From Oscillospiraceae bacterium (GTDB taxonomy: Bacteria; Bacillota; Clostridia; Oscillospirales; Oscillospiraceae), in assembly GCA_021769865.1 (NCBI GenBank), contig JAETSB010000005.1, forward strand, positions 4,219 to 68,218: a DNA stretch of 64,000 nucleotides, written 5' to 3'. How positions within the stretch are numbered: the stretch's first letter is position 1; each line of letters starts with the position of its first letter. The position numbers and the translations under genes were made by a program. Below the pieces are notes generated by a model. That model had not been told where the DNA came from and made no database searches. It saw only the letters and a program-made list of their open reading frames with translations. This document shows positions 47,501 through 61,720 of this stretch, one piece after another.

Positions 47501-47839
47501 GGCGGACTTCCGGGAGGGGCGGCGGTAGACCGTCAGCTCCGGGAGGACCTCCAGCAGGGCCTTTTCCAGGGTCAGGAGCTTGCCCCCCGCGTCCAGGGTC
47601 ACCTGGGCCGCGCCGCCGGTGATGGAGAGGACCCGGTCCGAGAGGCGGCGGAAGCTCAGCACCTCCGCGAAACGACTGGCCGCGTCGCCGCAGGCGCGGC
47701 AGAGGTCGATCTCCGCCTGGTGGGAGGCGTGCTCCGGCACCAGGAGAATCTGGTCCCGTCCGCCGGGATGGGCGGCGATGCGGTCCAGCACCGCCTGGGA
47801 TTTGCCGGTCTTGGCCCGGCCGGTCAGCAGCGTCAGCAT
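44531..47839 (-). CDS. addB: Helicase-nuclease AddB
   Basis: GRAKTGKS, LVPEH, GKVDRVD..VDYKSG, C-terminal Fe-S cysteines CRYCEWAPAC. Confidence 0.93.
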   Translation of the reverse strand: MLTLLTGRAKTGKSQAVLDRIAAHPGGRDQILLVPEHASHQAEIDLCRACGDAASRFAEVLSFRRLSDRVLSITGGAAQVTLDAGGKLLTLEKALLEVLPELTVYRRPSRKSAFLRQLLDLFDELRCYEVSPELLYEQSQAISGATRDKLRDLSLLYAAYEARLLRPGLDARDRMTKLCDSLEASGYALNKDIYIDGFTYFTAQERRCLSILLRQAHSLTVTLLGEPNSREEIFEASLRTLERLRRLAEREGKPVQIETLTSQDASALGHLERHFFGASVPYEGDSSQVRLLQADTVFSEVEQTAASIRRLLAEGKCRCRDITVAARNIEVYEPVIETVFERYEIPAYLSRRSDILEKPVLSLLTGVLASAGEGYEYDDMFRWLKTGLAGLQPEECDELENYVLKWEVHGGMWLRDVDWAENPDGYGAPWTPAREARLARVNALRRRVQAPLSRLAEGLKTGETAAAKVNALYDFMEELSLQDALEAQMRSQVQAGRLQEAEETAQLWEILCGVLDQFVEIVGDEPMELEEFTRLFRQVLTEYSVGTIPVSLDQVQVSGVARNDRHTAKYLFLLGANDHVLPTPGQGGGILNEDDRAELSRRGMELAPTGMDQMGIELQNLYAALAQPTEGLTVSWPVTDVSGAELRPAFVVDRLLALFPALRVEREPAEKPYRLTAPLPALEAAVPGGTLWKHLEEEPVFRPRLEAMARAAAQTRGSLSPRAVRALYGERVSMTASRLERIRTCHFSYFMEYGLKARPRTPAAFDAPQIGTFLHFLLERVTRDVQSLGGFAQVDQEALHALIRKYIDEYVQQELRNFQNRNARFRYLFARLRNTAYAVIDQAAEELRCSDFVPLAFELSFGDGKDLPAVVVSEPDGELRVGGKVDRVDGWLKDGKLYLRVVDYKSGKKSFDLSAVRMGLDIQMLLYLFTLQKTGAARFGAQIEPAGVLYLPARDDILTAQRNIPPEKLQAEREKQLRRSGLLLAEPQVLQAMEHEALTEPRYLPLRVNKSGNLSGSLASAAQLGKLGQYVETLLHDIAGEVRRGNIDADPCCHTEEDSPCRYCEWAPACHFQDGRDGDRLTYILPVKPEEFWREIEGKEAD

Positions 47840-47979
47840 GGATGCGCCTCCTTGGACAGCGTTTCTTGTCGAACAGTATACCATGATTCCGGGGCGGGCG
47901 GGAGAAAAATTTTTTCGGGGTGTATGCAAATGTGCAACTAAGCCGGAAGATCTCCGGGAGTTGTGAGGGGGAGTGCGAA

Positions 47980-48441
47980 ATGGAACGGGGAACATGGCTG
48001 AGGGAGTTCTGCGCCGCGTACCTGCGGACGATGGACCCGGAACAGGCGGCGGAGGCGGCGGGGCGGGAGGACGGCTTCGCCGCGCTGGCCCTGAAGAGTG
48101 TCCGGCGGCGGCTGGAAAAAATGCGGGGCGCGGCGGCCGGGGAGCTGCGGCGGGAGGACGCCCTCCGGCGGCTGGCCCAGCTGGCCTTCGGCCGGGCCAA
48201 CGACGCGGCGCGGCTGGCGCTGGCGCCGAAGGAGGTGGACCCGGAGGCGCTGGACCTCTCCGCCGTGGCGGAGATCAAAGTCACGGACAAGGGGGGCGTG
48301 GAGGTGAAGCTGGTGGACCGGGTGCGGGCCCTGGAAACCCTCTGCGGCCTTCTGGGAGAGAACGGAGGCGGCGGGGCCGAGGAGCTGTACCGGGCCCTGG
48401 AGGACGCCGCCGGGCAGCTGGAGGAGACCTATGGCGGGTAG
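47980..48441 (+). CDS. Terminase small subunit-like protein
   Basis: LAQLAFG..AVAEIKVTDKGGVEVKLVDRVRALE; overlaps the terL start. Confidence 0.7.
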   Translation: MERGTWLREFCAAYLRTMDPEQAAEAAGREDGFAALALKSVRRRLEKMRGAAAGELRREDALRRLAQLAFGRANDAARLALAPKEVDPEALDLSAVAEIKVTDKGGVEVKLVDRVRALETLCGLLGENGGGGAEELYRALEDAAGQLEETYGG

Positions 48442-49687
48442 GGGGCTCCGGTTCTCGGCAAAGCAGCTGCGGGTTTTGACCTGGTGGAGGAATCCTCAAT
48501 GGGAGGCCGTGATCTGCGACGGGGCGGTGCGGAGCGGAAAGACCTTCGCCATGGGGCTGAGCTTCTTCCTGTGGGCTCAGGCGGAGTTTGACGGGAAACA
48601 GTTCGGCGTGTGCGGAAAGACCATCGCTTCGGTGCGGCGGAACCTGCTGGCGGAGCTGGGCCCCTATCTCCGGCGGCTGGGCATGGAAGTCCGGGAACGG
48701 CGGGGAGAAAACGCGCTGACGGTCCGGTTCCGGGGGCACGAGAACACCTTTTTGCTGTTCGGCGGGCGGGACGAGTCCAGCGCGGCGCTGATCCAGGGAA
48801 GCACCCTGGCGGGGGTGCTGCTGGACGAGGCGGCGCTGATGCCCCGGTCCTTCGTGGAGCAGGCCGTGGCCCGGTGCAGCGTGGCGGGCAGCCGTCTGTG
48901 GTTCAACTGCAACCCGGAGGGGCCCCAGCACTGGTTTTACCAGGAGTGGATTTTGAAGGCGGAGGAACGGCGGGCCCTGCGGCTCCATTTTACCATGGAG
49001 GACAACCCGGCGCTTTCGGAGCGAATCCGGGAGCGGTACCGGCGGAATTACTCCGGGGCCTTCTACCGGCGGTTCGTGCTGGGGGAGTGGACGGCGGCGG
49101 AAGGGCTGGTGTACGACTTCTTCGATCCAAGGCGGGACGCGGCGGAGGTTCCGGAGGACGGGTTCTCCGCCTGGCGGATCTCCGCTGACTACGGAACGGT
49201 GAATCCGGCCTCCTTCGGGCTGTGGGGGCTCCGAGAGGGGGTCTGGTACCGGGTCCGGGAGTTTTACTACGACTCCAGGAAAATGGGGCGGCAGAGGACC
49301 GACGCGGAGTATGCGGAGGACCTGGAGCGGCTGGCGGAGGGACGGGAAATCCAGCGGGTCATCGTGGACCCGTCGGCGGCCAGCTTCATCGAGGTCCTGC
49401 GGCGGCGGGGCTTCCGGGTGGTCCGGGCGGACAACGATGTGGCGGACGGCGTCCGGGTGACGGCGGATCTGCTCCGGGAGGGGCGAATCGTCATTTGCAG
49501 AAGCTGTGAGGACTGCCTGCGGGAGATCGCCCAGTACTGCTGGGAACAGCGGGGAGAGCGGGACGCGCCCCGGAAAAAGGACGACCACGCTATGGACGAC
49601 CTGCGGTATTTCGCCATGGACCTGGCGGGGGACCGGGAGGAGGACGGCTTTCTGGCCCTGGCCGTGGAGCGGGAAGATGTTTTTTGA
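48431..49687 (+). CDS. PBSX-family terminase large subunit
   Basis: Walker A DGAVRSGKT, Walker B LLDE, NCNP, nuclease DYGTVNP, VDPSA, DDHAMDDLRY. Confidence 0.92.
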   Translation: MAGRGLRFSAKQLRVLTWWRNPQWEAVICDGAVRSGKTFAMGLSFFLWAQAEFDGKQFGVCGKTIASVRRNLLAELGPYLRRLGMEVRERRGENALTVRFRGHENTFLLFGGRDESSAALIQGSTLAGVLLDEAALMPRSFVEQAVARCSVAGSRLWFNCNPEGPQHWFYQEWILKAEERRALRLHFTMEDNPALSERIRERYRRNYSGAFYRRFVLGEWTAAEGLVYDFFDPRRDAAEVPEDGFSAWRISADYGTVNPASFGLWGLREGVWYRVREFYYDSRKMGRQRTDAEYAEDLERLAEGREIQRVIVDPSAASFIEVLRRRGFRVVRADNDVADGVRVTADLLREGRIVICRSCEDCLREIAQYCWEQRGERDAPRKKDDHAMDDLRYFAMDLAGDREEDGFLALAVEREDVF

Positions 49688-49701
49688 GAGGAGATGGGAC
49701 C

Positions 49702-50847
49702 TTGAAGTGGCTGAGGAAGAGAGAGGCGGCGGAACCCCGGCCGGAGGCGGTGCAGCTGCGGAACTGGGAGAAGCACCCCTTCAGGATGCTGGGGGAGTAT
49801 GTGCCCCTGCGGAACGGGGAGACCCGGCTCTACCGGGCGGTGCGGGAGGCGGTGCCGGTAGTGGACGCGGCGATTTACAAGCTCATCCGCATGGCGGGGG
49901 GCGTGACGGTCTCCTGTGAGGACAAACGGGCGGAACGGGAGCTGGGGGAGTTTCTGCGGACGGTCCCCATCGGGCGGGGACAGCACGGGCTGAACGCCTT
50001 TTTGGACAGCTATCTGGATTCCCTGCTGACCTGCGGAAGGGCGGTGGGGGAGATTGTCCCCGCCGCCGGGAACCGGTCCATTGCCGCTCTGCTGTGCGGG
50101 CGGGTGGAGGACATCGAGATCCGGGAGGGGGAGAATCCTCTGACCTTCTCCGTCTGGGGGCCGGACGAGAGCGGGCGGATGGCGGCGCTGCCCTATCAGG
50201 ACTTGATTCTCTTTACGCCGCTGAACCCGGAGGCGGAGAACCCCTATGGGGTGTCCCTGCTGCGGTCGCTGCCCTTTCTGGCGGACATTTTGATGAAGAT
50301 TTACCACACCGTCGGGGTGAACTGGGAGCGGTGCGGGAACCTCCGCTTCGCCGTCACCTGCCAGGGCGGCGAGGGGGCCGCGGAGCGGGGGAAGCTGCTG
50401 GCCGGGGAGTGGTCCCGGGCCATGCGGGAGACCCGGGGCGGCAGCGTGCGGGACTTCGTGGCGGCGGGGGATGTGGACATCCGGGTTATCGGCGCCGACG
50501 CAACCGTGCTGGACAGCCAGGTGCCCGTGCGGCAGATTTTGGAGCAGATCGTGGCGAAAACCGGCATCCCGCCCTTCATGCTGGGGCTCAGCTGGAACTC
50601 CACCGAGCGGATGAGCTCCCAGCAGGCGGACATGCTCACCACCGAGGTCACCGCCCTGAGGCGGACCCTGACGCCGGCGGTGGAACGGGTCTGCCGGCTG
50701 TGGCTCAGGATGCGGGGCTATGCCTGCGGGTTCCAGGTGGTGTGGGACGACATCAACCTCCAGGACCAGGTGGAGGAGGCCCGGGCGGAACTCTACCGGG
50801 AACAGGCCCGGAAGCTGCGGATTGAAAACGACGCCGCGGAGGCGTGA
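49702..50847 (+). CDS. Portal protein
   Basis: Position after terL; PYGVSLLR and TGIPPFMLG motifs; TTG start with GAGGAG RBS. Confidence 0.8.
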   Translation: MKWLRKREAAEPRPEAVQLRNWEKHPFRMLGEYVPLRNGETRLYRAVREAVPVVDAAIYKLIRMAGGVTVSCEDKRAERELGEFLRTVPIGRGQHGLNAFLDSYLDSLLTCGRAVGEIVPAAGNRSIAALLCGRVEDIEIREGENPLTFSVWGPDESGRMAALPYQDLILFTPLNPEAENPYGVSLLRSLPFLADILMKIYHTVGVNWERCGNLRFAVTCQGGEGAAERGKLLAGEWSRAMRETRGGSVRDFVAAGDVDIRVIGADATVLDSQVPVRQILEQIVAKTGIPPFMLGLSWNSTERMSSQQADMLTTEVTALRRTLTPAVERVCRLWLRMRGYACGFQVVWDDINLQDQVEEARAELYREQARKLRIENDAAEA

Positions 50848-50865
50848 GACTTGGGAGGAACGAGT

Positions 50866-51729
50866 ATGGAGGACTGGAAGGGATTGGCCGTCACGGCGGA
50901 GGATTTGGCGCTGATCAACGGCCTGGCCAAGGCCGAGCTGACGGCAGAGCAGGTGTATGTGTTCGCCCTGCGGCTGTGCGACAACGAGGTGGACCGGGAC
51001 TTTGAACGCTTCGACAACGAGGCGCTGGAGCGGCTGGGCGAGCTGCTGGCGGGGAAGAGCGGCATCTTCGACCACCAGTGGAGCGCCCGGGGACAGACGG
51101 CCCGGATTTACAAGACGGAGGTGATCCGGGAGCCGGCGGTCCGCACCCAGGCGGGGGATGAGTACCGCTGGCTGAAGGGCTGGGCCTATCTCCTGCGGAC
51201 GGAGAAAAACGAGGACCTCATCGCGGAGATCGAGGGCGGCATCAAGAAGGAGGTCAGCGTCGGGTGCAGCGCCGGACGGAGCGTGTGCTCCATCTGCGGG
51301 GCGGAGAACGGGGACTGCGGCCACGTGCCGGGGCAGGAGTACGACGGGGCGCTGTGCTTCCGGGAATTGCGGGATATTACGGACGCCTATGAGTGGTCCT
51401 TCGTGGCGGTGCCCGCCCAGAGGGCGGCGGGGGTGCTGAAGCGCTTCGGACAGGAGCGGGAGGGGGACCGGACCCTCCGCAGGGAGGCGGAGCTGGGGCG
51501 GAAGTACCTCAAGGAGCTGCGGCGGGAGGTGGTCCGCCTGGCCATGCTGGCGGACGACGGGCTGGACGGCGGCATCTTCGCCAAGGCGGCGGAACGGCTG
51601 GAGGAGCCGGAGCTGCTGGAGCTGCGCCGGACCTATGAAGCCCGGGCGGCGAAACGCTTCCCCGCCCCGGTGCAGCTGCGGAAAAGGGACGCCGGAAGGG
51701 CGGAGGACGCGGAGGCGTTCCGGGTTTGA
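50866..51729 (+). CDS. Prohead protease-like protein
   Basis: VDRDFERF, DHQW, EVSVG, CSICG..CGH insert, YEWSFVAVPAQ (E-x-S-x-V-x-x-P-A motif). Confidence 0.7.
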   Translation: MEDWKGLAVTAEDLALINGLAKAELTAEQVYVFALRLCDNEVDRDFERFDNEALERLGELLAGKSGIFDHQWSARGQTARIYKTEVIREPAVRTQAGDEYRWLKGWAYLLRTEKNEDLIAEIEGGIKKEVSVGCSAGRSVCSICGAENGDCGHVPGQEYDGALCFRELRDITDAYEWSFVAVPAQRAAGVLKRFGQEREGDRTLRREAELGRKYLKELRREVVRLAMLADDGLDGGIFAKAAERLEEPELLELRRTYEARAAKRFPAPVQLRKRDAGRAEDAEAFRV

Positions 51730-51784
51730 GAACGGACTGCGGGGCGAAGGCCCTGTGCCGGATATACAGAAGGAGGAAAGAGGC

Positions 51785-52855
51785 ATGAGCTATCATTTTG
51801 AAAACGTGCGGCTGGAGAAGGGGATGTACGGCCGCAGCGGGACCAGCTTCACCAGGACCCTGGAGGAGCTGGACCCCAGCGAGCGCTACCGGGGCACTCC
51901 CATGGAGGGCCTGGACGCCTTCCAGCGGCAGCTGAAGCGTTTTGACATCCACGTCAAGGGCGCGGACAGCGACCCCGTGGAAAAGTTCTTCCACACCACC
52001 GAGTCCTCGGTGCTGTTCCCGGAGTTCGTCTCCCGGGTGGTGCGCCAGGGGCTGGAGGAGGGCGGCATCCTGCCGGACATCACCGCCACGGTGACGAAGT
52101 TCGACGGGATGGACTACCGCTCCATCGCCTCCGTGCCCACGGAGGACGAGAAGAAGCTGGTACAGGTGGAGGAGGGCGCGGCCATCCCCGAGACCTCCGT
52201 CCACACCCAGGAGAACCTGGTGAAACTCCAGAAGCGGGGGCGGATGCTGGTGGCCTCCTATGAGGCCATCCGCTTCCAGCGGCTGGACCTGTTCTCCGTC
52301 ACCCTGCGGCAGATTGGGGCCTACATCGGGAAGATGCACCTCCAGGACGCCATCAAGGTGCTTCAGGAGGGAGACGGCAACAAGAACCCGGCGGAGGTGG
52401 TGAACCACAGCGGCGAGCTCACCTACGACGCGCTGCTGGAGTTCTGGAACAAGTTCGATCCCTACACCATGAACACCCTGCTGATGGGGGGCGACACCAT
52501 GCTGAAGCTGCTGAAGCTCAAGGAGTTCCAGAACCCCCTGACGGGGCTGAACTTCCAGGGCACGGGTACCCTGTCCACGCCTCTGGGGGCAAAGCTGCTG
52601 AGAACGAACGCCATGCCCGCCGGGACCATCATCGGCCTGGACAAGAACTACGCCCTGGAGCAGGTGATCGGCGGCGAGGTGACGGTGGAGTACGACAAGC
52701 TTATCGACCGCCAGCTGGAGCGGGCCGCCATCACCTCCATCTCCGGCTTCGCCAAGCTGTTCGCCGACGCGTCCAAGGTGCTGAAGATTAGCGCCGCCGG
52801 CGGCTCCGGCGGAACCTCCGGCGAATCCTCCGGCGGCACTCAGACCCAGGGCTGA
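51785..52855 (+). CDS. Major capsid protein
   Basis: Position; VEEGAAIP..KRGRMLVASYEAI resembles HK97-fold capsids; strong AAGGAGG RBS. Confidence 0.8.
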   Translation: MSYHFENVRLEKGMYGRSGTSFTRTLEELDPSERYRGTPMEGLDAFQRQLKRFDIHVKGADSDPVEKFFHTTESSVLFPEFVSRVVRQGLEEGGILPDITATVTKFDGMDYRSIASVPTEDEKKLVQVEEGAAIPETSVHTQENLVKLQKRGRMLVASYEAIRFQRLDLFSVTLRQIGAYIGKMHLQDAIKVLQEGDGNKNPAEVVNHSGELTYDALLEFWNKFDPYTMNTLLMGGDTMLKLLKLKEFQNPLTGLNFQGTGTLSTPLGAKLLRTNAMPAGTIIGLDKNYALEQVIGGEVTVEYDKLIDRQLERAAITSISGFAKLFADASKVLKISAAGGSGGTSGESSGGTQTQG

Positions 52856-52866
52856 GCAGTGCGGCC

Positions 52867-53226
52867 GTGAGCGAGCGGATTTTAAAGCTGGCCCTGGAAT
52901 TGACCGGGGGCGGCGAGGGGGACCGGATGCTTCTGGCGGCCCTTTGCGCCGTGGCGGAGGACGCCTGGCTGGCCCGCCTCCGGGAGGGCGTGACGGCGGA
53001 GGACTGCGGCGAGGCCCTGCCCTGCGCCGCCGCCTTCACGGCGGCGGCGGATCTGGCGGCGGGCGGGGACGGCGTGGACTCCTTCTCCGCCGGGGACATT
53101 TCCGTGCGGCTGGAGAGCGGCGGCGAACGGGCCGGACGGGCGGAGAGCCTCCGGCAGGCGGCGGAACGGCTGATGGAGCCATTTGTCCGGGCGGAGGGGC
53201 TTTGGGCCCAGGGGGTGGAAGGATGA
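52867..53226 (+). CDS. Head-tail adaptor-like protein
   Basis: Size and position; DSFSAGDISV motif. Confidence 0.6.
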   Translation: MSERILKLALELTGGGEGDRMLLAALCAVAEDAWLARLREGVTAEDCGEALPCAAAFTAAADLAAGGDGVDSFSAGDISVRLESGGERAGRAESLRQAAERLMEPFVRAEGLWAQGVEG

Positions 53227-53537
53227 CCCGCTGGGTGGAACGGATCCTGGCCCGGTACGGGCAGGAGGTCACCGTGGAGCGGGAGGGGACGGCGGAGGCC
53301 GTCCGGGCCTTTCTCCAGCCGGTGACGGAACGAAGCGAGGACGGGCCGGAGCCCTCGGCCATCGGACAGCTGGACGGGCGGCTGTGGCTGTACCTGGGAC
53401 GGACGGCCCTGGAGGCCGGGGACGCGGTTTGTTGGGACGGACGGCGGTTCCGGGTGCGGAGCGGACGGCCCCACTATATCGGCGGGCGGCTCAGTCACTG
53501 GCGGGCCGTGCTGGAACGGGCGAGGGAGGCGGAATGA
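53223..53537 (+). CDS. Head-closure-like protein
   Basis: ATGA overlap; YGQEVTV..AFLQP..GDAVCWDGRRFRV beta-barrel pattern. Confidence 0.55.
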   Translation: MTRWVERILARYGQEVTVEREGTAEAVRAFLQPVTERSEDGPEPSAIGQLDGRLWLYLGRTALEAGDAVCWDGRRFRVRSGRPHYIGGRLSHWRAVLERAREAE

Positions 53538-54037
53538 AGGAACTGAGACAGGTCCGGGACGCGGTGATCGCCGCCCTCCGGGCCGAAGGGCTGGCGGCGG
53601 AGGCCGCCTTTCCCGGCAAGTGGGCGAAGGAGCGGAAAACGCCGCTGGCCACGGTGGCCGTGGGGGCGGCGGAGGGCCGGGCCCTGGGCTTCTGCGGATA
53701 CCTGGGGGAGACCCGGGGGAAGGACGGCGAGGCCCGGGAGGTCTATGGCAAGCGGCTGGAGGGCGTCATCACCGTGGACGTCCGGGCCGAGCGGGCCGCG
53801 GACTGCGAGGAGGGCGGCGAAACCGCGGCGGCGGCGCTGCTGGGGAAGCTGCCGGAGGGCATTCGGCCCGGGGAGCTGAGCTGGGAGGCCCTGGTATGGG
53901 AAAAGCAGACGGGGCTGTTTCTCCGGCGGGGAAAACTCCGGTGCGAGGCGCTGTTTCTGGCGGAGGCCGGGAACGAGGAGCCGGAGTTCCTGGATTTTAT
54001 GTTGAAAGGGGTTTTGCGAAGTGAGCAATCTGCATGA
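53534..54037 (+). CDS. Tail terminator-like protein
   Basis: ATGA overlap; position just before the sheath gene. Confidence 0.5.
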   Translation: MKELRQVRDAVIAALRAEGLAAEAAFPGKWAKERKTPLATVAVGAAEGRALGFCGYLGETRGKDGEAREVYGKRLEGVITVDVRAERAADCEEGGETAAAALLGKLPEGIRPGELSWEALVWEKQTGLFLRRGKLRCEALFLAEAGNEEPEFLDFMLKGVLRSEQSA

Positions 54038-55079
54038 GCGGCCGGGGGTCTACTCGGTCTATGACACGTCCTCGGTGGTGTCCGGGGGACGGGCCGTCCG
54101 GACCATCGGCGTGGCGGCCAAGGCGGCCAAGGGCACCGTGGATAAGCCGGTGATGGTGACGGGCTGGGCCGCCGGAGTCTCTGCCTTCGGGGAAGACCAA
54201 ACGGCGGGGATGAGCACCCTTCTGCGGCTGCTGTTTGAAAACGGCGCGTCCGCCGTGACGGCGGTCCGGGTGGCGGATACCGGCACGACGGAGGACTATG
54301 CCCGGGCCTTTGCCGTCCTGGGAACGGAGGACGTGCAGGTCCTGGTCTGCGACAGCGGCGAGGAGGCGGTGCAGAAGGCCCTGCGCTCCGCCGTGGAGGA
54401 GGCCTCCGGCCTCCGGCATGAGCGCATCGCCGTGGTGGGCTGCGGGTCGGCGGAGGTTTCGGACCTGGTGGAACGGGCGGCGGAACTGAACAGCGAGCGG
54501 GTGGTCCTGGTGGGGCCCGACGCCCTGGACAGCGCGGGGAAGCCCTTGTCCGGCGTCTTCGCCGCGGCGGCGGTGGCGGCCCTGGCGGCTTCCGCCGCCG
54601 ACCCGGCGGTGCCGCTGAACGGGGCGGCTGTCAAAGGTTTGACGGGCCTCAGTGAGGAGTACGGCGACAACGACATCGACCTGCTGGTCCGGGGCGGCGT
54701 GACGCCCCTGGAGTGCGTGGGGGGCGTGGTGTCCCCGGTGCGGGGCATCACCACCCGGACCAAGACCGGCGGCGCGGCGGACGCCACGTGGCGGGAGCTG
54801 ACCACCATTTTGATTGTGGACGACGTGATTCCGTCGGTGCGGTCCGCCCTGCGGAGCCGGTTCTCCCGCAGCAAGAACAACGCCCGAAACCGGGCGGCCA
54901 TCCGGTCTCAGGTCATCGTGGAGCTGGAGAAGAAGCTGGCGGCGGAGATCATCGACGGCTATGACGACGTGACCGTCACCGCCTCTCCCGACGACCCCAC
55001 CGTGTGTTTGGTGGAGTTCGGCTTCGCCGTGGCCCACGGGCTGAACCAGGTGCGGCTGACGGTCCACATTGAGATTTAA
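54021..55079 (+). CDS. Contractile tail sheath protein
   Basis: HERPGVYS start; DPAVPLNG, GGVTPL, VRGITT, IVDDVI; C-terminal beta strand. Confidence 0.85.
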   Translation: MSNLHERPGVYSVYDTSSVVSGGRAVRTIGVAAKAAKGTVDKPVMVTGWAAGVSAFGEDQTAGMSTLLRLLFENGASAVTAVRVADTGTTEDYARAFAVLGTEDVQVLVCDSGEEAVQKALRSAVEEASGLRHERIAVVGCGSAEVSDLVERAAELNSERVVLVGPDALDSAGKPLSGVFAAAAVAALAASAADPAVPLNGAAVKGLTGLSEEYGDNDIDLLVRGGVTPLECVGGVVSPVRGITTRTKTGGAADATWRELTTILIVDDVIPSVRSALRSRFSRSKNNARNRAAIRSQVIVELEKKLAAEIIDGYDDVTVTASPDDPTVCLVEFGFAVAHGLNQVRLTVHIEI

Positions 55080-55088
55080 GAAAGGGGC

Positions 55089-55481
55089 GTGAAGAGCATG
55101 ACGGGATTTCCCACCAGCGCCGACATCTATCTGGAGATGGACGGCAAAAAGGTGGCGGTGGTACAGAGCTACACCGCCAAGGCGACGAAAACCTCCCAGA
55201 GCGTGGAGGCCTTCGGCGAGAGCGAGCCGGTGGCCACCATCGAGGGGCAGAAGCGCTACACCCTGGAGCTGACCAGGCTCTACGCCACGGACAACGCCGT
55301 GTCCGACGGGATCAACTTCTACGACATGGCGAACTTCTCCCTGGTGATCTGCAAGCCGGACCGGCGGGTCATCTACAGCGACTGCCAGTGGAGCGGCATC
55401 GAGGAGGACGGAAAGCTCAACGCCATGGTGGCGGAGAAGGTCACCGTGGTGGCGGCCAAGCGGATCGAGACCTCCGCATGA
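55089..55481 (+). CDS. Tail tube protein (probable)
   Basis: 130-aa beta-rich ORF immediately after the sheath gene. Confidence 0.65.
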   Translation: MKSMTGFPTSADIYLEMDGKKVAVVQSYTAKATKTSQSVEAFGESEPVATIEGQKRYTLELTRLYATDNAVSDGINFYDMANFSLVICKPDRRVIYSDCQWSGIEEDGKLNAMVAEKVTVVAAKRIETSA

Positions 55482-55789
55482 GGGACGTCGACGAGCTGCG
55501 GCCCCTGACGGCCGGGCGGCTGCTGGAGCTGTGGCAGGCGTGCCGGGGAGTGGAGGACCCGCTGGAGCGGGTGCTGCTGTGCAACGGGCGGATTCTGTCC
55601 GAGTGCTGTTTCTCTCAGGGGGAACGGGTCTACGGGGACGAGAGGGAGGTCCTGGCGGACCTGACGGGGCGGCAGATGGAGCGGCTGCTCCGGCGGCTGG
55701 GGTCGGACGGCGGGGACCGCCGCCCCCGGGCGGAGACGGTGAACCCGGAATTTGACGCGGCGCGGTTCGCCGCGCTGTGGAGGGAGTGA
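55478..55789 (+). CDS. Tail assembly chaperone-like protein
   Basis: ATGA overlap; LRPLTAG start; position after the tube gene. Confidence 0.5.
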   Translation: MRDVDELRPLTAGRLLELWQACRGVEDPLERVLLCNGRILSECCFSQGERVYGDEREVLADLTGRQMERLLRRLGSDGGDRRPRAETVNPEFDAARFAALWRE

Positions 55790-55794
55790 AACAC

Positions 55795-56691
55795 GTGGAC
55801 TATTTGGGCTGGGAGCTGGAGCGGCAGCGGGCGGCGCTGCGGGCGCTGCTGGGAGGCGGGGAGACGGAGGAGGGGGAAGCCTTCTCCGGGGAGGAGCCTT
55901 CTGACTGGGGCGGGCCGTCCGGTTGGGATGGAAGCGTCTCCGCGGAGGGAACGCGGCGGAGTCCGGAAGGCCTTGGGAAGGCGCGGGGGCGCGGCTCAGG
56001 GCGGACCGGGCGATACGCCGCAGGGCGCGGAGAGGCCGGGGGGCCCCTGATTGGGGCCCCTGGGGCCTGGGAAATGGTCCGGGAGGCGGATCGAGCCGCT
56101 TTGGCAAAGGGATTGGACGGCCCGCCGGTAAGCGCGGAGCTCCAAAGTGGAGAGGCGGGCTCCCCGGCCCGGGGACGGCGGAGTAGGGGGACAGGCGCCC
56201 GGCCGTTTTCCCGGCGGTATGCCCCGGAGGAGATGCGGAGAACGTCCCGGATTGGGACAGGCGGGACGGCGGAACTCCGAGGGTTCTCCGGCGGGCAGAG
56301 GGACTATGAGGAGGAATGGGAGACGGCGGACGGGACCGGAGCGGAAGCGGCGGTTGAAACCGCCGGGGGGAGACGCGCCGGAGATGTGTTTGCCGAGAGG
56401 GGCCCCGCCCTGGAAGCGGGCGGGGCTCCGTCTCCCGGGGGGAGCTCCGGCGGAGGGGGGGCCGCTGGAGATGCTCCCACCCCTATGAGCCGGGACGGGG
56501 CGGGGATGGTCCGGCCCGTTCGAGACGGTCTGGCCGGGGCGGCGGGGCCGGGAGAACGGCTGTCCCGGACCCTCCCCTGGGGGGAGGGCTGGGAGAGCCC
56601 CGCCCTCCGGGCGGAGGACGGGGCGAAGGCCCTGTCCCGGGCGGTGCAGCGGGACGCCCGGCGGTATGACGGCGGGTTTACGATCTATTGA
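55795..56691 (+). CDS. Low-complexity protein at the tape-measure position
   Basis: 298 aa; helical ends with a G/A/E/R/P-rich interior. Confidence 0.5.
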   Translation: MDYLGWELERQRAALRALLGGGETEEGEAFSGEEPSDWGGPSGWDGSVSAEGTRRSPEGLGKARGRGSGRTGRYAAGRGEAGGPLIGAPGAWEMVREADRAALAKGLDGPPVSAELQSGEAGSPARGRRSRGTGARPFSRRYAPEEMRRTSRIGTGGTAELRGFSGGQRDYEEEWETADGTGAEAAVETAGGRRAGDVFAERGPALEAGGAPSPGGSSGGGGAAGDAPTPMSRDGAGMVRPVRDGLAGAAGPGERLSRTLPWGEGWESPALRAEDGAKALSRAVQRDARRYDGGFTIY

Positions 56692-56745
56692 CAGGGTTTC
56701 GCCGGGGAGGCTTCCCCGGCGGAGTCGTGAGAGGGGGGACGCGGC

Positions 56746-57333
56746 ATGCGGCTGACGCCGATGCGGTTTAAAGAGTTCACGTGGCCGCACAACCCGGAGG
56801 TGTACACGGTGGAGCGGCGGCGGCGGATTGCCGTCCACCAGGTCCCCTTCGGGCCGTGCGTGATGCAGGAGCTGGGAGGCTCCTACCGGGTGCTGAAGGG
56901 GGAGGGCGTCTTTGTGGGGGAGGACGCCTATGAGCGCTTCAAGGAGCTAGCGGGGGTCTTCCAGGAGGAGGGACCGGGGCTGCTGGTCCACCCGGTCTGG
57001 CCGGCGGAGCGGGCCTATTTCGCGGTGCTGGAGGCCGTGGAGGAGCCCAGGCCGGACTTTGTGCGCTACCGCTTCGAGTTCTGGGAGGACGCGGGCGGCT
57101 ACGACGGCGGATGGAAGGCGGTGGAGACCGGGAACGGCGGAGGAAGCTCCGGCGGCGGCGCGGCCCCGGGAAATGACGCCGGGAATCAGAGGGTCCACAC
57201 CGTGCGGAAGGGGGACACCCTCTGGGCTGTGGCGAAGCAGTACGGCGTGGAGCTGACGGCCCTGATCCGGGCCAATCCCCAGATCAAAAACCCGAATCTG
57301 ATCTATCCGGGAGAGGCGGTGAAGGTGCCGTGA
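56746..57333 (+). CDS. LysM-domain baseplate/tube-initiator protein (XkdP-like)
   Basis: HTVRKGDTLWAVAKQYG..NPQIKNPNLIYPG. Confidence 0.85.
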   Translation: MRLTPMRFKEFTWPHNPEVYTVERRRRIAVHQVPFGPCVMQELGGSYRVLKGEGVFVGEDAYERFKELAGVFQEEGPGLLVHPVWPAERAYFAVLEAVEEPRPDFVRYRFEFWEDAGGYDGGWKAVETGNGGGSSGGGAAPGNDAGNQRVHTVRKGDTLWAVAKQYGVELTALIRANPQIKNPNLIYPGEAVKVP

Positions 57334-58274
57334 CGGGAACGCTTTACACGGCGGATCACCGGATGTTCCAGCTGCCGCCGCTTTTGAGCTGGCGGGTCAC
57401 CCACACGGGAAGCGTGCCCTGCGACAGCTTTTCCGTCAGCTTCGTCTATCAGAAGGAGATGGCGGAGGTGCTGAAGCTGGCGGCGGGCTTCGCGGCGGAG
57501 GAGGACGGAACGGTAATGCTCCGGGCCATTGTGGACGAGTATACGGTGGACCTGGACGGGAACGGGCTGACGGCCACGGTCTCCGGCCGGGGCTACGCCG
57601 CGAGGCTTCTTGACAACGAGTCCCGGCCCGTTACCTACCAGCAGGCCACGCTGGCGGAGATTCTGGCAAACCACGCGGAGCCCTATGGCATTACCTGCGG
57701 GGAGACGGCGGAGGTCCGGGCGGAGTCCGTCTACACTGTGGCGGCGGGGACCAGCCAGTGGAAGGCGGTGGAGAGCTTCTGCCGGACCTATGGGGGCTTT
57801 GTCCCCCGGTTCAGCCGGGAGGGGGAGCTGCTGGCGGGGCCGGAGAAGGAGGGGCGGACCCTTTCCATCGGGGAGAAGACGGCGGTGCTCTCCTGCACCC
57901 TGCGGGAGGACCACTACGGCGTGCTGACGGAGGCGCTGGTCATCGACAAGACCCAGAACAAGGATTTCTCTGTGAAAAATCAGGAGATGATCGACAAGGG
58001 GGGCCAGTGCCGCCGGGTGCTCTACACGCCAGGACAGAGCACTTGGGCCGCCATGCGGTACACGGGTGAGTATCAGATCGCGCGGTCCAAGGAGGACGCC
58101 TGGACGGCGGAGGTGACGCTGCCGGGGAGCTTCCTGGCCTTCCCCGGGGACCGGGTATCCCTGTCCCTGGAGCGGATGGGCCTTTCCGGGACCTTCCGGG
58201 TGACGGAGGCGGAAAACCGCTTCGACGGCCGGAGCGGGGCCGTGGCGGTGCTGACGCTGAAGCCCTTGGAATAG
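57330..58274 (+). CDS. Baseplate hub protein (XkdQ / Mu gp44-like)
   Basis: CDSFSV, SGRGYAARLLDNE; position after the LysM gene. Confidence 0.7.
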   Translation: MTGTLYTADHRMFQLPPLLSWRVTHTGSVPCDSFSVSFVYQKEMAEVLKLAAGFAAEEDGTVMLRAIVDEYTVDLDGNGLTATVSGRGYAARLLDNESRPVTYQQATLAEILANHAEPYGITCGETAEVRAESVYTVAAGTSQWKAVESFCRTYGGFVPRFSREGELLAGPEKEGRTLSIGEKTAVLSCTLREDHYGVLTEALVIDKTQNKDFSVKNQEMIDKGGQCRRVLYTPGQSTWAAMRYTGEYQIARSKEDAWTAEVTLPGSFLAFPGDRVSLSLERMGLSGTFRVTEAENRFDGRSGAVAVLTLKPLE

Positions 58275-58291
58275 AGACAGGAGGAAGGGTT

Positions 58292-58705
58292 ATGTGGCTT
58301 TCAAGACAAATCAAGCCCGCGGCGGCGACGGCGGACGCGGATCTGGGCATTACCACCATCAGCGGGCAGAAGGTGGGCGTGGTGACCCGGGGGGAGGTCC
58401 GGGACCTGCCGGTCTACGGCCCCGGAGGCTACCTCTGGACCCCCGCCAACGGGACGGCGGTGCTGGTGGTGAAGGGCGGGCCCGGCGGCGAGGAACAGTG
58501 CGTGGCCGGGGCCCGGCCCTTGGAGGAGGTCCCGAAGATCGAGCCGGGGGAGGTTTATCTCTACGGGCCCGGTGAGAATACGGTGTATCTGAAACAGGAC
58601 GGCAGCGTGGAAATTAAGGGGAGCCGGGTGTCCGTGACCGGGGAGCTGAGCGTCACGGGACAGCTCACCGTCAACGGGCAGCCCTACGCGCTCTGCAATT
58701 GCTGA
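58292..58705 (+). CDS. Baseplate spike protein (Mu gp45-like)
   Basis: PGGYLWTP, EPGEVYLY..VYLKQDGSVEI beta-repeats. Confidence 0.65.
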   Translation: MWLSRQIKPAAATADADLGITTISGQKVGVVTRGEVRDLPVYGPGGYLWTPANGTAVLVVKGGPGGEEQCVAGARPLEEVPKIEPGEVYLYGPGENTVYLKQDGSVEIKGSRVSVTGELSVTGQLTVNGQPYALCNC

Positions 58706-58718
58706 GGGAGGCGGAGGA

Positions 58719-59069
58719 ATGGAGCTGGAGATGAGGAACGGGGACTACCTGGCCGACGGCGTGGGGGGCCTGCGGCGGGTGGGGGGCCGGGAGGCCCTCC
58801 TCCAAAGGGTGCTCTTCCGGCTGACGGCCCGGCGGGGAAGCTTCCCCTTCTGGGAGACGCTGGGGAGCCGCCTCTGGGAGCTGGGCCGGGTCCCCGCCCG
58901 GGAGCGGCGGAGCGCCGCCCGGCAGTATGTGACGGAGGCCCTGGCAGAGGAGCCGGTGACGGTGGAGGACGTGGCCCTGAGCCAGGGCCGGGACGGCGGA
59001 GCGGCGGTGACGGCGAGGCTGCGCTATGAGGGAGAGGACCTGCCGGTGACGGTGCAGGTCCTCCCTTGA
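58719..59069 (+). CDS. Baseplate wedge / sheath initiator (gp25-like)
   Basis: LQRVLFRLTARRGSF..LGSRL..YVTEAL. Confidence 0.7.
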   Translation: MELEMRNGDYLADGVGGLRRVGGREALLQRVLFRLTARRGSFPFWETLGSRLWELGRVPARERRSAARQYVTEALAEEPVTVEDVALSQGRDGGAAVTARLRYEGEDLPVTVQVLP

Positions 59070-59088
59070 ACGGGAGAGGAACGGGAAT

Positions 59089-60159
59089 ATGCGGAGTATT
59101 GAGACGATTTATGAGAAGCTGCTGGCGGATTTCGCGGAGCGGGCGGGCTTCACGCCGGAGGCGGGCTGCGACCTGGCGGTGCGGCTGTGGGCGGCGGCGG
59201 CAGAGCTCCAGGCCTTGGAGATCCAGGCGGACTGGGTGCTGGACCAGAGCTTCCCCCAGACGGCCCAGGGAGTCTATCTGGACCGCCACGGGGCTATGCG
59301 GGGGTTGAAGCGGCTGGGGGCCACCCGGTCGGGGGGCGCCCTGCGCTTCTCCGTGGAAGCGGCCCCGGCCATGGAGCTCTCCATTCCGGCGGGGACGGTA
59401 TGCATGACGGCGGAGGAGGTCCGGGTGCGGACCACGGAGGACGCGGTGATCCCGGTGGAGGCGCTGTATGTGGACGTCCCCGCCGAGGCGGTGGAGGCCG
59501 GGCCGGGGGGCAACGTGGTGCCGGGGGCGGTGCGGTTCCTGACGGCCTGCCCCACGGCGGTGACGGCGGTGACGAATCCGAAGGCTTTCACCGGCGGGGC
59601 CGGGGAGGAGGACGACGAGACCTTCCGCACCCGCATTCTGGAGAGCTACCGCCGCCTGCCCAACGGGGCCAACACCGCCTGGTACGAGACCACGGCCATG
59701 AGCTACCCCGGTGTGACGGCGGCCAAGGCCGTTGGCCGGGCGGAGGGGCCGGGGACGGTGAACGTCTACGTCACCGGGGAGAACGGCCTCCCGGACGAGG
59801 CGCTGCTGGCGGGGCTCCAGGCGGAGCTCCAGGAAAAGCGGGAGATCGCCGTGACGGTGAAGGCTCTGGCTCCCACGGCCAAGACGGTGAACGTCGCCGT
59901 GGCGGTGGCCCCCAGGGAGGGGGCGGACAAGGAGGCGGTGCTGGAGTCCGCCCGGCAGGCCATGGCCGATTTCTTCGGCGGGCGCCTGCTGGGCCGGGCC
60001 GTGCTGCTGGCAGAGCTGGGAAACCGGCTCTACGAGCTGGAGGGCGTGGAAAATTACCGCTTCACCGCCCCGGCGGCGGACATCCCGGCGGACAGCACGG
60101 CCCTGCCGGTGCTGGGGACGCTGGAGGTGACGGAATACCTGGGGCCGGAGGAGGCGTAA
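59089..60159 (+). CDS. Baseplate J/gp47 family protein
   Basis: TAQGVYLDRHG, GPGGN, GGAGEEDDETFRTR, GPGTVNVY. Confidence 0.9.
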   Translation: MRSIETIYEKLLADFAERAGFTPEAGCDLAVRLWAAAAELQALEIQADWVLDQSFPQTAQGVYLDRHGAMRGLKRLGATRSGGALRFSVEAAPAMELSIPAGTVCMTAEEVRVRTTEDAVIPVEALYVDVPAEAVEAGPGGNVVPGAVRFLTACPTAVTAVTNPKAFTGGAGEEDDETFRTRILESYRRLPNGANTAWYETTAMSYPGVTAAKAVGRAEGPGTVNVYVTGENGLPDEALLAGLQAELQEKREIAVTVKALAPTAKTVNVAVAVAPREGADKEAVLESARQAMADFFGGRLLGRAVLLAELGNRLYELEGVENYRFTAPAADIPADSTALPVLGTLEVTEYLGPEEA

Positions 60160-60160
60160 C

Positions 60161-60739
60161 ATGTACGAGGAGTATCTGCGGAGGCTGCTGGCCCCCCTGG
60201 GGGTCTACCGGCTGGACCGGGACTCCCTCAGCGGGGCGGAGATTTATGCCCTGGGCAGGGGGCTGGACGCCGTGTCGGACCGGCTGGACGAGGTGGAGCA
60301 AGAGAGCGTCACCGCCACGGCGGAGGGCGAGGGACTCCGCCGCCGGGAGGCGCTGTTTCTCCGGCGGCCCGCCGCCGTCACGCCGGAGGAGCGCCGGGCG
60401 GCCATCGCGGCCCTGCTGCAAATCGACGGGGACAGCCTGACGCCGGAGGCGATTGGCCGGACGATTCGGGGCTGCGGCATCCGGGCCCAGGCCATCGAGC
60501 TGGGAACCAACCGGGTCCGGGTGGTGTTTCCCGGGACCGTGGGGGTCCCGGCGGAGTTTGAGCAGATTGAGAAAATTGTGATGGATATTCTGCCCTGCCA
60601 CCTGGGGGTGGAGTTTTATTTCCGGTTTCTCACCTGGGAGGAGTGCCATCGGGCGGGGTATACCTGGGGGTTTGTGGAGGAGCAGGAATATGACTGGGAG
60701 GGGTTCCAGAAGGCGATTCCTCCTGAGGAGGGGGATTGA
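60161..60739 (+). CDS. YmfQ/XkdU-like baseplate wedge protein
   Basis: TATAEGEGLRRRE, ILPCHLGVEF; follows the baseplate J gene. Confidence 0.7.
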   Translation: MYEEYLRRLLAPLGVYRLDRDSLSGAEIYALGRGLDAVSDRLDEVEQESVTATAEGEGLRRREALFLRRPAAVTPEERRAAIAALLQIDGDSLTPEAIGRTIRGCGIRAQAIELGTNRVRVVFPGTVGVPAEFEQIEKIVMDILPCHLGVEFYFRFLTWEECHRAGYTWGFVEEQEYDWEGFQKAIPPEEGD

Positions 60740-60794
60740 ACTTGCCCTGACGGGCAGGGGGATTACAGCTAGGATGCCAGCTGGTGCATTGCAC

Positions 60795-61030
60795 CCCCCA
60801 TTTTCTCTTTTTCTTCCAGAAGAAAAAGAGAAAACGGGCCGTGCACGGTCCAAAAGAGAAAAAGAAGGAACGCCCTGCGGGGGACGAAAGACGGAGGGAC
60901 GCGCAAGGCGTGCCTCCGCCTTTTTCGCAAGTCTTCGGACCGCGGCGTGGTGTGGGCGGGGGTTTTGGTGCTGGCCGAATGGACTTGCTCCTCTTTCCGC
61001 TGCCGCTGACTTGGCGGTTGGGGACGCTCC
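60795..61030. repeat. Palindrome-rich intergenic element
   Basis: ttttctctttttctt-ccag-aagaaaaagagaaaa hairpin, ccgtgcacgg, cggagg..cgc-aag-gcg..cctccg. Confidence 0.45.
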
Positions 61031-61350: not shown

Positions 61351-61438
61351 TGGTGCGCGAGGCGGGACTTGAACCCGCACGTCCGTAAAGGACACTAGAA
61401 CCTGAATCTAGCGAGTCTGCCAATTCCACCACTCGCGC
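61351..61438 (-). tRNA. tRNA-Leu(CAG)
   Basis: GCGCGAG acceptor stem, anticodon arm CTAGA-TTCAGGT-TCTAG, long variable arm, GTTCAAGTC, encoded CCA. Confidence 0.96.
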
Positions 61439-61516
61439 GCATCCATATGAACTTGCCGGCCCTCCGGACGGAGACGGAATGGGGTCCCGCCCCGGATGAG
61501 ACGGGACCCTTCCTTC

Positions 61517-61604
61517 TGGTGCGCGAGGCGGGACTTGAACCCGCACGTCCGTAAAGGACACTAGAACCTGAATCTAGCGAGTCTGCCAATTCCACCACTC
61601 GCGC
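61517..61604 (-). tRNA. tRNA-Leu(CAG), identical copy
   Basis: Same 88-nt sequence as 61351-61438. Confidence 0.96.
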
Positions 61605-61634
61605 ATGGCGCCGACGGTCTCTTGAGGGGACCTG

Positions 61635-61720
61635 TGGTGCGGCTGACGGGACTTGAACCCACACGTCGAATCGACACCAGCACCTCAAGCTGGCCTGTCT
61701 ACCAGTTCCAGCACAGCCGC
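61635..61720 (-). tRNA. tRNA-Leu(GAG)
   Basis: Anticodon arm CCAGC-TTGAGGT-GCTGG, variable arm, encoded CCA. Confidence 0.95.

Follow-up and report, generated by a model that had tools for sequence, protein, structure and literature searches.

What does a bacterium keep when its chromosome holds the genes for a phage head and tail but none of the genes that replicate or integrate a phage? The question is raised by an operon at positions 47980-60739 (+) of the window, the 64,000-nucleotide (nt) stretch of Oscillospiraceae DNA analysed here, in which 18 co-oriented open reading frames (ORFs) with intergenic gaps of -17 to +55 nt form a block of ~13 kb specifying a terminase, a head and a contractile tail. 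(Positions are those within the window unless a contig, C, of its own genome, G000, or a locus, L, is named.) An earlier note on this DNA took the block for a domesticated, vertically inherited particle, possibly a gene transfer agent (GTA), and not for a decaying prophage. The analysis leaves little doubt that the block is a functional, domesticated, phage-derived particle system, and we lean towards the more specific reading that it belongs to a multi-locus, GTA-like particle.

That the block is domesticated, and not decaying, follows from its conserved gene order between host genes, a tree like that of RpoB, ratios of nonsynonymous to synonymous substitution (dN/dS) of 0.12-0.44, and the failure to find a real phage that carries it. 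It is present once in its own genome, and translation of all 18 ORFs confirmed that they are free of internal stops. As in GTAs, phage-derived head, packaging and tail genes occur without replication or integration genes: no integrase or replication genes adjoin the block, the scanned flanking genes are housekeeping genes, and the repeat search found no att-like flank repeat longer than chance, as the earlier note had stated. The features of an active or defective prophage (an integrase or att site, a replication module, close phage relatives) are lacking. Nor do the homologues sit mostly in complete prophages, which the note had regarded as evidence against domestication, since no intact phage with this capsid was found in GenBank phage records or IMG/VR contigs. 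Eight GenBank phage records match the capsid, five of them unverified faecal scaffolds, and the three that were fetched are all chromosome pieces; the best cultured-phage capsid match has 24% identity, and the 24 IMG/VR contigs (4-23 kb) contain nothing but the block, or the block and a few genes from its flanks. TerL shares ~50% identity with terminases of Lactobacillus and Oenococcus phages. Because the block is catalogued as “phage” in IMG/VR and GenBank, it is likely to be miscounted in viromes. The “Bacteriophage sp.” records L124 (MT835508.1), L125 and L126 are bacterial chromosome pieces with the block, and L124 includes a ribosomal protein operon.

Vertical inheritance under purifying selection, a further property of GTAs, was evaluated by searching for rpoB in 60 genomes, which gave 43 usable loci, 39 of them with both head and tail genes. 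All 11 RpoB splits with support of at least 0.99 recur in the tree of ten element genes, and at a support of 0.95 the two trees have 16 of 20 splits in common and 2 in conflict. The patristic correlation between element and RpoB is 0.97, and label shuffling produced at most 2 common splits; kinship inflates congruence statistics of this kind, but the topology nonetheless agrees from species to family depth. The median pairwise dN/dS values quoted above come from 17 block genes (the tape-measure-slot gene was left out) in the 20 genomes of the closest clade; they are Nei-Gojobori ratios, rough owing to the high GC content at third codon positions (GC3). Head genes are conserved as much as tail genes, and the comparators addB, addA and rpoB gave 0.21, 0.24 and 0.09, with dS similar to that of the block. 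Both checks that had been proposed for the vertical-descent claim, tree congruence and dN/dS, therefore came out in its favour, and the family-wide single copies, the host flanks and the lack of an intact phage support it as well.

The proposed family-wide search showed the block to be single-copy and widely distributed. Among 400 Oscillospiraceae genomes, each at least 90% complete, the capsid gene was detected in 177 (two weak matches having been removed from 179; 3 genomes have two matches), and carriage is all-or-none in several genera. It is present in 28/36 genomes of the same genus and in 22/234 genomes belonging to five further families of this order, and named carriers among the relatives include Oscillibacter, Dysosmobacter, Flavonifractor, Pseudoflavonifractor, Lawsonibacter and Intestinimonas. 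Across the relatives the genes keep their order between host genes, all 16 core genes being called unsplit in 37 of 48 block-spanning loci; the 11 exceptions comprise four loci without terS, three with gene-call misses or Ns, one without gp25, two broken loci and one without a tail. In the closest clade the block is intact in 20/20 genomes. Losses of the block are real, because ymfQ is also missing from 26 of the 33 capsid-negative genomes of carrier genera, and two of these 26 are single-contig. In some genera the order of the head genes has changed, with the capsid gene before the portal or protease gene (L202, L203, L355).

The case for a system that extends beyond the operon begins with a conserved motif at 47905-47938 (+), 59 nt before terS, which consists of an AT tract and an imperfect palindrome (TGCAC-N6-GTGCAAC) and is a putative activator site or promoter. 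Across loci it lies mostly 55-100 nt upstream of terS. At least 10 of its 14 positions are matched in 56/59 loci, from which the consensus was itself derived; in a held-out test, 14 of 15 family loci outside the training set scored at least 10 bits, a score reached by only 4 of 1860 upstream regions in the own genome. The three highest scores in that genome belong to terS, which ranks first among the 1860 own genes, and two orphan tail-fibre genes, and the fourth-best match precedes a gene pair that we take to be yaaL-bofA. The terS-trained motif precedes 20/35 fibre genes (two of them found via the motif itself) as against 11/1860 own genes, and the maximum for a column-shuffled position weight matrix is 2. 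A division of genes over several loci, as known from GTAs, is thus indicated by a motif common to terS and the dispersed fibre genes, which may be co-regulated through it.

The two orphan fibre genes lie outside the window, at C28:5143-5655 (-) and C17:15430-16023 (+), each with the motif upstream; they have a 30-residue N-terminus in common and unrelated C-termini. A profile of this N-terminus found matches in 27/40 capsid-positive genomes, at 1-10 copies each, and in 0/40 capsid-negative genomes of genera without or nearly without the block. A richer profile recovered 5 of the 13 missed carriers, which brings the total to 32/40, and had no match in 24 negatives from capsid-poor genera. The family is identified as tail fibres by its position in relatives: it stands directly 3' of ymfQ, the usual fibre position, in 7/20 out-of-family loci, and it was found inside none of the Oscillospiraceae operon loci scanned; the window operon has no tail-fibre gene after ymfQ or elsewhere. 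One member has a tail-collar domain, and a fold model gave weak matches in a viral library, tail fibres among them (E ~2-4e-4), and weak PDB matches (Z ~5).

The fibre tips are hypervariable (2/276 pairs similar), and 24 of 33 fibre rows (one duplicated; 22 regions) stand tail-to-tail with an SLH S-layer gene 61-188 nt away, which is not a blind rate, since the regions were picked after the neighbours were known; several of the remaining rows are cut by region ends. The tips may recognise an S-layer type, and the adjacency would be an unusual genetic link of a delivery particle to its presumed receptor. Co-evolution of the two was considered and received no support, the correlation with fibre similarity being no higher for the S-layer C-terminus (rho 0.13) than for the SLH end (0.18). 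The own genome has three S-layer paralogs (C28:1-5061, C17:16100-20896 and C28:104062-108207), two of which start at the same residue, each at the end of a contig, which suggests a shared or switching 5' part.

A candidate activator was recognised from one clade in which a gene of 77-82 amino acids (aa) and a sigma-70 region-4 helix-turn-helix (HTH) gene follow the block. Their own-genome orthologs form a zinc-finger / 77-aa / sigma-4 HTH operon outside the window, at C22:5481-6191 (-). The sigma-4 ortholog is present in 37/40 carriers, and the 77-aa partner is adjacent to it in 29/30 fetched loci. Among the 400 family genomes, 142 have both sigma-4 and capsid genes, 35 the capsid gene only, 32 the sigma-4 gene only and 191 neither, counts in which kin are non-independent and from which the cut-off drops divergent orthologs. 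A structure model of the sigma-4 protein weakly matches sigma region-4 folds, and the motif was found upstream of the module in 0/34 loci. By analogy, the module could be an activator with a role like that of Xpf or GafA. Divergent from it, across two tRNAs, is an HTH and peptidase S24 (cI/LexA-like) gene (L192:6831-7535, on C22), possibly an SOS-linked repressor.

DNA packaging is favoured as the selected function, because relatives drop the tail yet keep terminase, portal and capsid. The DNA-binding region of TerS, moreover, seems to have been eroded or lost. Out-of-family copies have the N-terminal HTH of TerS at full length; in the window's clade it is shortened, and it was undetected in 22/58 loci, among which are one 153-aa TerS and four loci without any TerS; TerS proteins of known GTAs lacking this domain are described in PMC6854486 and PMC11841831. 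The ATPase and nuclease motifs of TerL, which the earlier note had read as intact, are preserved: all 57 full-length sequences contain Walker A and the DPSA and DHxxD nuclease motifs, and 56/57 contain Walker B. Tail-less or sheath-less relatives that retain TerL, portal and capsid are L067, L069, L124, L201, L210, L344-L348 and L350, and four tail-less genomes contain no orthologous baseplate J. The loci with no terS at all (L045, L047, L048, L049) have a slightly longer TerL (~432 aa). The out-of-family loci L344-L347, L351, L359 and L355-L358 have no called sheath or tube gene, and hub and baseplate genes come directly after those of the neck, possibly a route from contractile to very short tails.

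Taken together, these observations suggest a chromosomally fixed, non-replicating morphogenesis operon that would build a small head with a very short contractile tail. The head would be filled with host DNA of any sequence, probably by a headful mechanism to judge from the TerL family, and the DNA would be delivered to related cells in the manner of a GTA. The common motif would co-induce the operon and the scattered fibre genes, the zinc-finger / 77-aa / sigma-4 HTH module would activate the system, and interchangeable tips would come from the fibre genes that stand next to S-layer genes.

Several observations weigh against a domesticated particle or against a GTA. The block is missing from about 55% of family genomes, two single-contig genomes of carrier genera among them, and there are a few broken copies (L043, L093); patchiness and pseudogenes, which the earlier note had named as possible refutations, are therefore seen in part. 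One decaying copy, L043 (G495, a complete chromosome), has terL ~25 kb from the capsid gene, a cut protease gene and a split baseplate J gene. By the richer profile, 13 of the 33 capsid-negative genomes in carrier genera still have fibres, so that co-loss of fibres and block is not strict; fibre and S-layer similarity hardly co-vary, as noted above; the sigma-4 gene occurs without the capsid gene in 32 of the 400 genomes; and the window's own TerS keeps a recognisable N-terminal region. DNA delivery is in doubt: according to PMC10996793, a membrane segment and a hydrolase domain have been proposed to be needed by Gram-positive-targeting tails to cross the envelope, and the slot protein lacks the former and the hub the latter. 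No lysis gene was found for this copy: PF05105 holin and PF01510 amidase matches are absent from the own genome, which is 81% complete, and its holin-like genes belong to a prophage on C35. The earlier statement that lysis genes are missing thus holds for this genome but not for several clades whose operon ends in holin-like genes, accompanied in some by an endolysin-like gene. In one clade the block is followed by a GH25 gene, which was rejected as a host enzyme; its own-genome ortholog has a hydrophobic N-terminal segment and no motif. Finally, published statements point elsewhere: PBSX, which has a similar layout and packs 13 kb of host DNA, is described as killing and not injecting (PMC12946183), and, in statements concerning metagenome-assembled genomes (MAGs) whose sequences were not compared here, Borodovich et al. 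report no operon in an Onthomonas MAG (PMC12946183) and Maier et al. no strong GTA cluster in Pelethomonas (PMC13371034).

The alternative that survives best is that the particle is a PBSX-like bacteriocin, which packs host DNA as a by-product and kills rivals; S-layer type would decide which cells its fibres target, and producers would be immune through the S-layer of their own. The contractile tail, the PBSX-family TerL, the hypervariable tips and the presence of up to 10 fibres per genome all fit this scheme, diffocins and phages of Clostridioides difficile target the S-layer, as stated in PMC10996793, and PBSX-like particles that pack 9-13 kb of host DNA and kill are described in PMC8347963. 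We nevertheless regard it as unlikely, if well worth keeping in mind, since relatives lose the sheath, the tube or the whole tail yet keep head and terminase, which is the reverse of tailocin evolution, and head genes are as conserved as tail genes. The slot protein also lacks a pore-forming segment: its ORF, open in 56 loci, has 142-329 aa from stop to stop, from which a very short tail is predicted, and a maximum 19-residue hydropathy of 1.05, which argues against pore-forming killing.

A domesticated particle with some other job seems distinctly improbable. It might, for instance, release protected DNA, act as a decoy, or be made in the sporulating mother cell and set free when that cell lyses. 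Mother-cell lysis would explain why no lysis genes are linked to the block in the window's clade, the LysM domain of the tube initiator passes the SafA/ExsA model, the capsid gene is found in 3/30 spoIVA-negative as against 174/370 spoIVA-positive genomes, and the presumed yaaL-bofA pair carries the fourth-best motif match. The sporulation link is nonetheless weak and confounded, because spoIVA is near-universal (370/400) and explains little, and the negatives come from a few related genera; the SafA match is a match of the LysM domain, several clades keep holin-like genes in the operon, and fibres and baseplate imply that cells are targeted.

A helper or satellite-type module, which would lend heads or tails to mobile elements or co-infecting phages or need them for lysis, is very improbable: head-only variants resemble capsid-forming satellites in content and many clades lack lysis genes, but there is no integrase, primase or att site, descent is vertical across the family, and the system has its own promoter motif and fibres. 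A decaying, functionless remnant would account for the missing and broken copies, yet it is barely credible given the intact copies of the closest clade, dN/dS well under 1, co-divergence with RpoB across genera, and the conserved motif and dispersed fibres.

The GTA-like reading can be placed among known systems. PBSX and the Bacillus pumilus particle Bp15.1PLP are likewise chromosomal and non-replicating, with a head, a contractile tail and a PBSX-family TerL, and the sigma-like late activator Xpf of PBSX parallels the sigma-4 module; this likeness concerns layout and TerL family, capsid and sheath not being part of the comparison. The block differs in its size (~13 kb as against 28-33 kb), in having no linked xre repressor, xpf sigma factor or lysis cassette in the window, the sigma-4 module being on C22, in its miniature tape measure, and in fibres dispersed beside S-layer genes. 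RcGTA of Rhodobacter capsulatus, which is regulated by GafA and has a non-contractile tail, resembles the block at the level of design, sequences not having been compared: it has a structural cluster of ~13-15 kb, fibres and activator at separate loci, an activator site upstream of terS, vertical inheritance, and a TerS losing its DNA-binding domain, the last with a parallel in some loci of the block. Transfer by RcGTA has been demonstrated; the block has a contractile tail and multi-copy fibres. The multi-locus design of RcGTA is described in PMC9638019.

FpGTA of Faecalibacterium (Borodovich et al. 2026, PMC12946183) is also a replication-less operon system with split loci in a gut member of the Oscillospirales. 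As described there, however, it is podovirus-like, with a capsid of the N4-gp56 family where the block has PF25209 and a sheath (a distinction by family, without direct sequence comparison), and it has two operons with lysis genes and packs ~8.5 kb (PMC12946183); the block and FpGTA are different elements. The R-type tailocin diffocin of C. difficile has in common with the block the sheath, tube, hub, spike, J and YmfQ wedge, and its receptor binding is S-layer-directed. Unlike the block, in which head, portal and terminase are under selection, diffocin has no head or terminase, and it has a long membrane-spanning tape measure, a hub hydrolase and a fibre gene inside the locus.

The Oscillospiraceae, abundant commensals of the gut, are, as stated in PMC12946183 and PMC13371034, large contributors to virus-like-particle DNA in the human and mouse gut, for which the responsible locus has yet to be assigned. 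According to these sources the family is over-represented in mouse virus-like-particle DNA (PMC13371034), and GTA-like packaging in it accounts for 3/25 events, with an Onthomonas peak of 5.9 kb and no operon assigned; only two Gram-positive GTA-like systems, PBSX and FpGTA, are described in PMC12946183. A literature search, outside which lay subscription papers, figures and bioRxiv supplements, found no account of the present element, which may be an unassigned GTA of the Oscillospiraceae. Now that a structural operon can be named together with a promoter motif, a candidate activator and candidate genes for receptor binding, the origin of Oscillospiraceae particle DNA becomes testable in cultured strains. 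New here are the motif upstream of terS, the motif-bearing orphan fibres, the co-occurring sigma-4 module, apparent TerS HTH erosion, repeated tail loss and the short membrane-free slot protein. More speculatively, and with considerable doubt, the block might represent an ancient, order-wide, myovirus-type GTA of gut Oscillospirales, whose fibre gene left the operon in the Oscillospiraceae and multiplied as fibre-S-layer cassettes, so that S-layer types travel with a matching address label. Cells with a given S-layer would then receive the DNA, and a cassette of ~3-6 kb could itself fit into one particle.

The individual genes, all on the forward strand, are as follows. Database models (Pfam, PHROG, NCBIfam) back ten of the names given in the earlier note, those of TerS, TerL, portal, capsid, sheath, LysM protein, hub, gp25, baseplate J and YmfQ; position supplies the names of protease, neck 1, neck 3, tube, chaperone, tape-measure slot and spike, because these have only PHROGs of unknown function or no match. 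The small terminase subunit, with its N-terminal HTH region shortened in the alignment, is at 47980-48441 (PF03592), the large subunit, of the PBSX/SPP1-type family with intact motifs, at 48431-49687 (TIGR01547, 186 bits against a cut-off of 105), the portal at 49684-50847 (phrog_30703; PF04860 weak), and a putative prohead protease or scaffold at 50866-51729 (phrog_16951, unknown function). The major capsid protein (51785-52855; PF25209, phrog_3922) has no match in NCBIfam and none among solved structures by sequence search. Most relatives have a 115-aa virion structural gene (phrog_4588; for example L039:8595-8954) between protease and capsid genes; it is missing from the window's clade (interval 51730-51784). 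Three neck or connector genes (52867-53226, 53223-53537 and 53534-54037; phrog_939 weak, phrog_25177) lead to the contractile sheath (54021-55079; PF04984, PF17482), a putative tail tube (55089-55481; phrog_27038, phrog_985 weak) with the lowest dN/dS of the set, 0.12, and a putative assembly chaperone (55478-55789), a conserved cluster. The starts at 51785, 53534 and 55478 correct those given previously. The slot at 55777-56691 does hold an ORF, as had been claimed, but not a normal tape measure: the protein is short and poor in hydrophobic residues, with conserved ends and a hypervariable, low-complexity middle. There follow the tube initiator with its LysM domain (56746-57333; PF07157, PF01476), the baseplate hub (57330-58274; phrog_177), a putative spike (58292-58705; phrog_25991, unknown function), the gp25-like sheath initiator (58719-59069; phrog_120, PF10934 weak), the baseplate J wedge (59089-60159; PF04865) and, as last gene, the YmfQ/Mu gp48-like wedge (60161-60739; PF10076, phrog_521).

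To the left, addB starts at 47839 (-), divergent and 140 nt away, as the note had it, so that the region 47840-47979 is common to the operon and to addB-addA (a recombination helicase-nuclease); this neighbourhood is restricted to the closest clade, rodent-gut Oscillibacter. The right flank was said to be a terminator plus tRNAs. Three tRNA-Leu genes are indeed present at 61351-61720 (-), but the flank also has hairpins and begins, at ~60740-61000, with a dispersed repeat that has >60 BLAST matches in the own genome. This repeat has a high depth in contigs from RNA runs. Four such runs were not used for expression, since they contained only relatives' contigs, covered operon and addAB alike and may include DNA carry-over. 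The claim of host-like base composition holds for GC3 (0.78-0.93; host median 0.89) and not for overall GC, which is 69% against a genome mean of 63%. The resident prophage on C35 (~5000-42000; L129, L130), with recombination, replication, terminase, holin-like and CHAP-like genes, has a GC of 51-58%.

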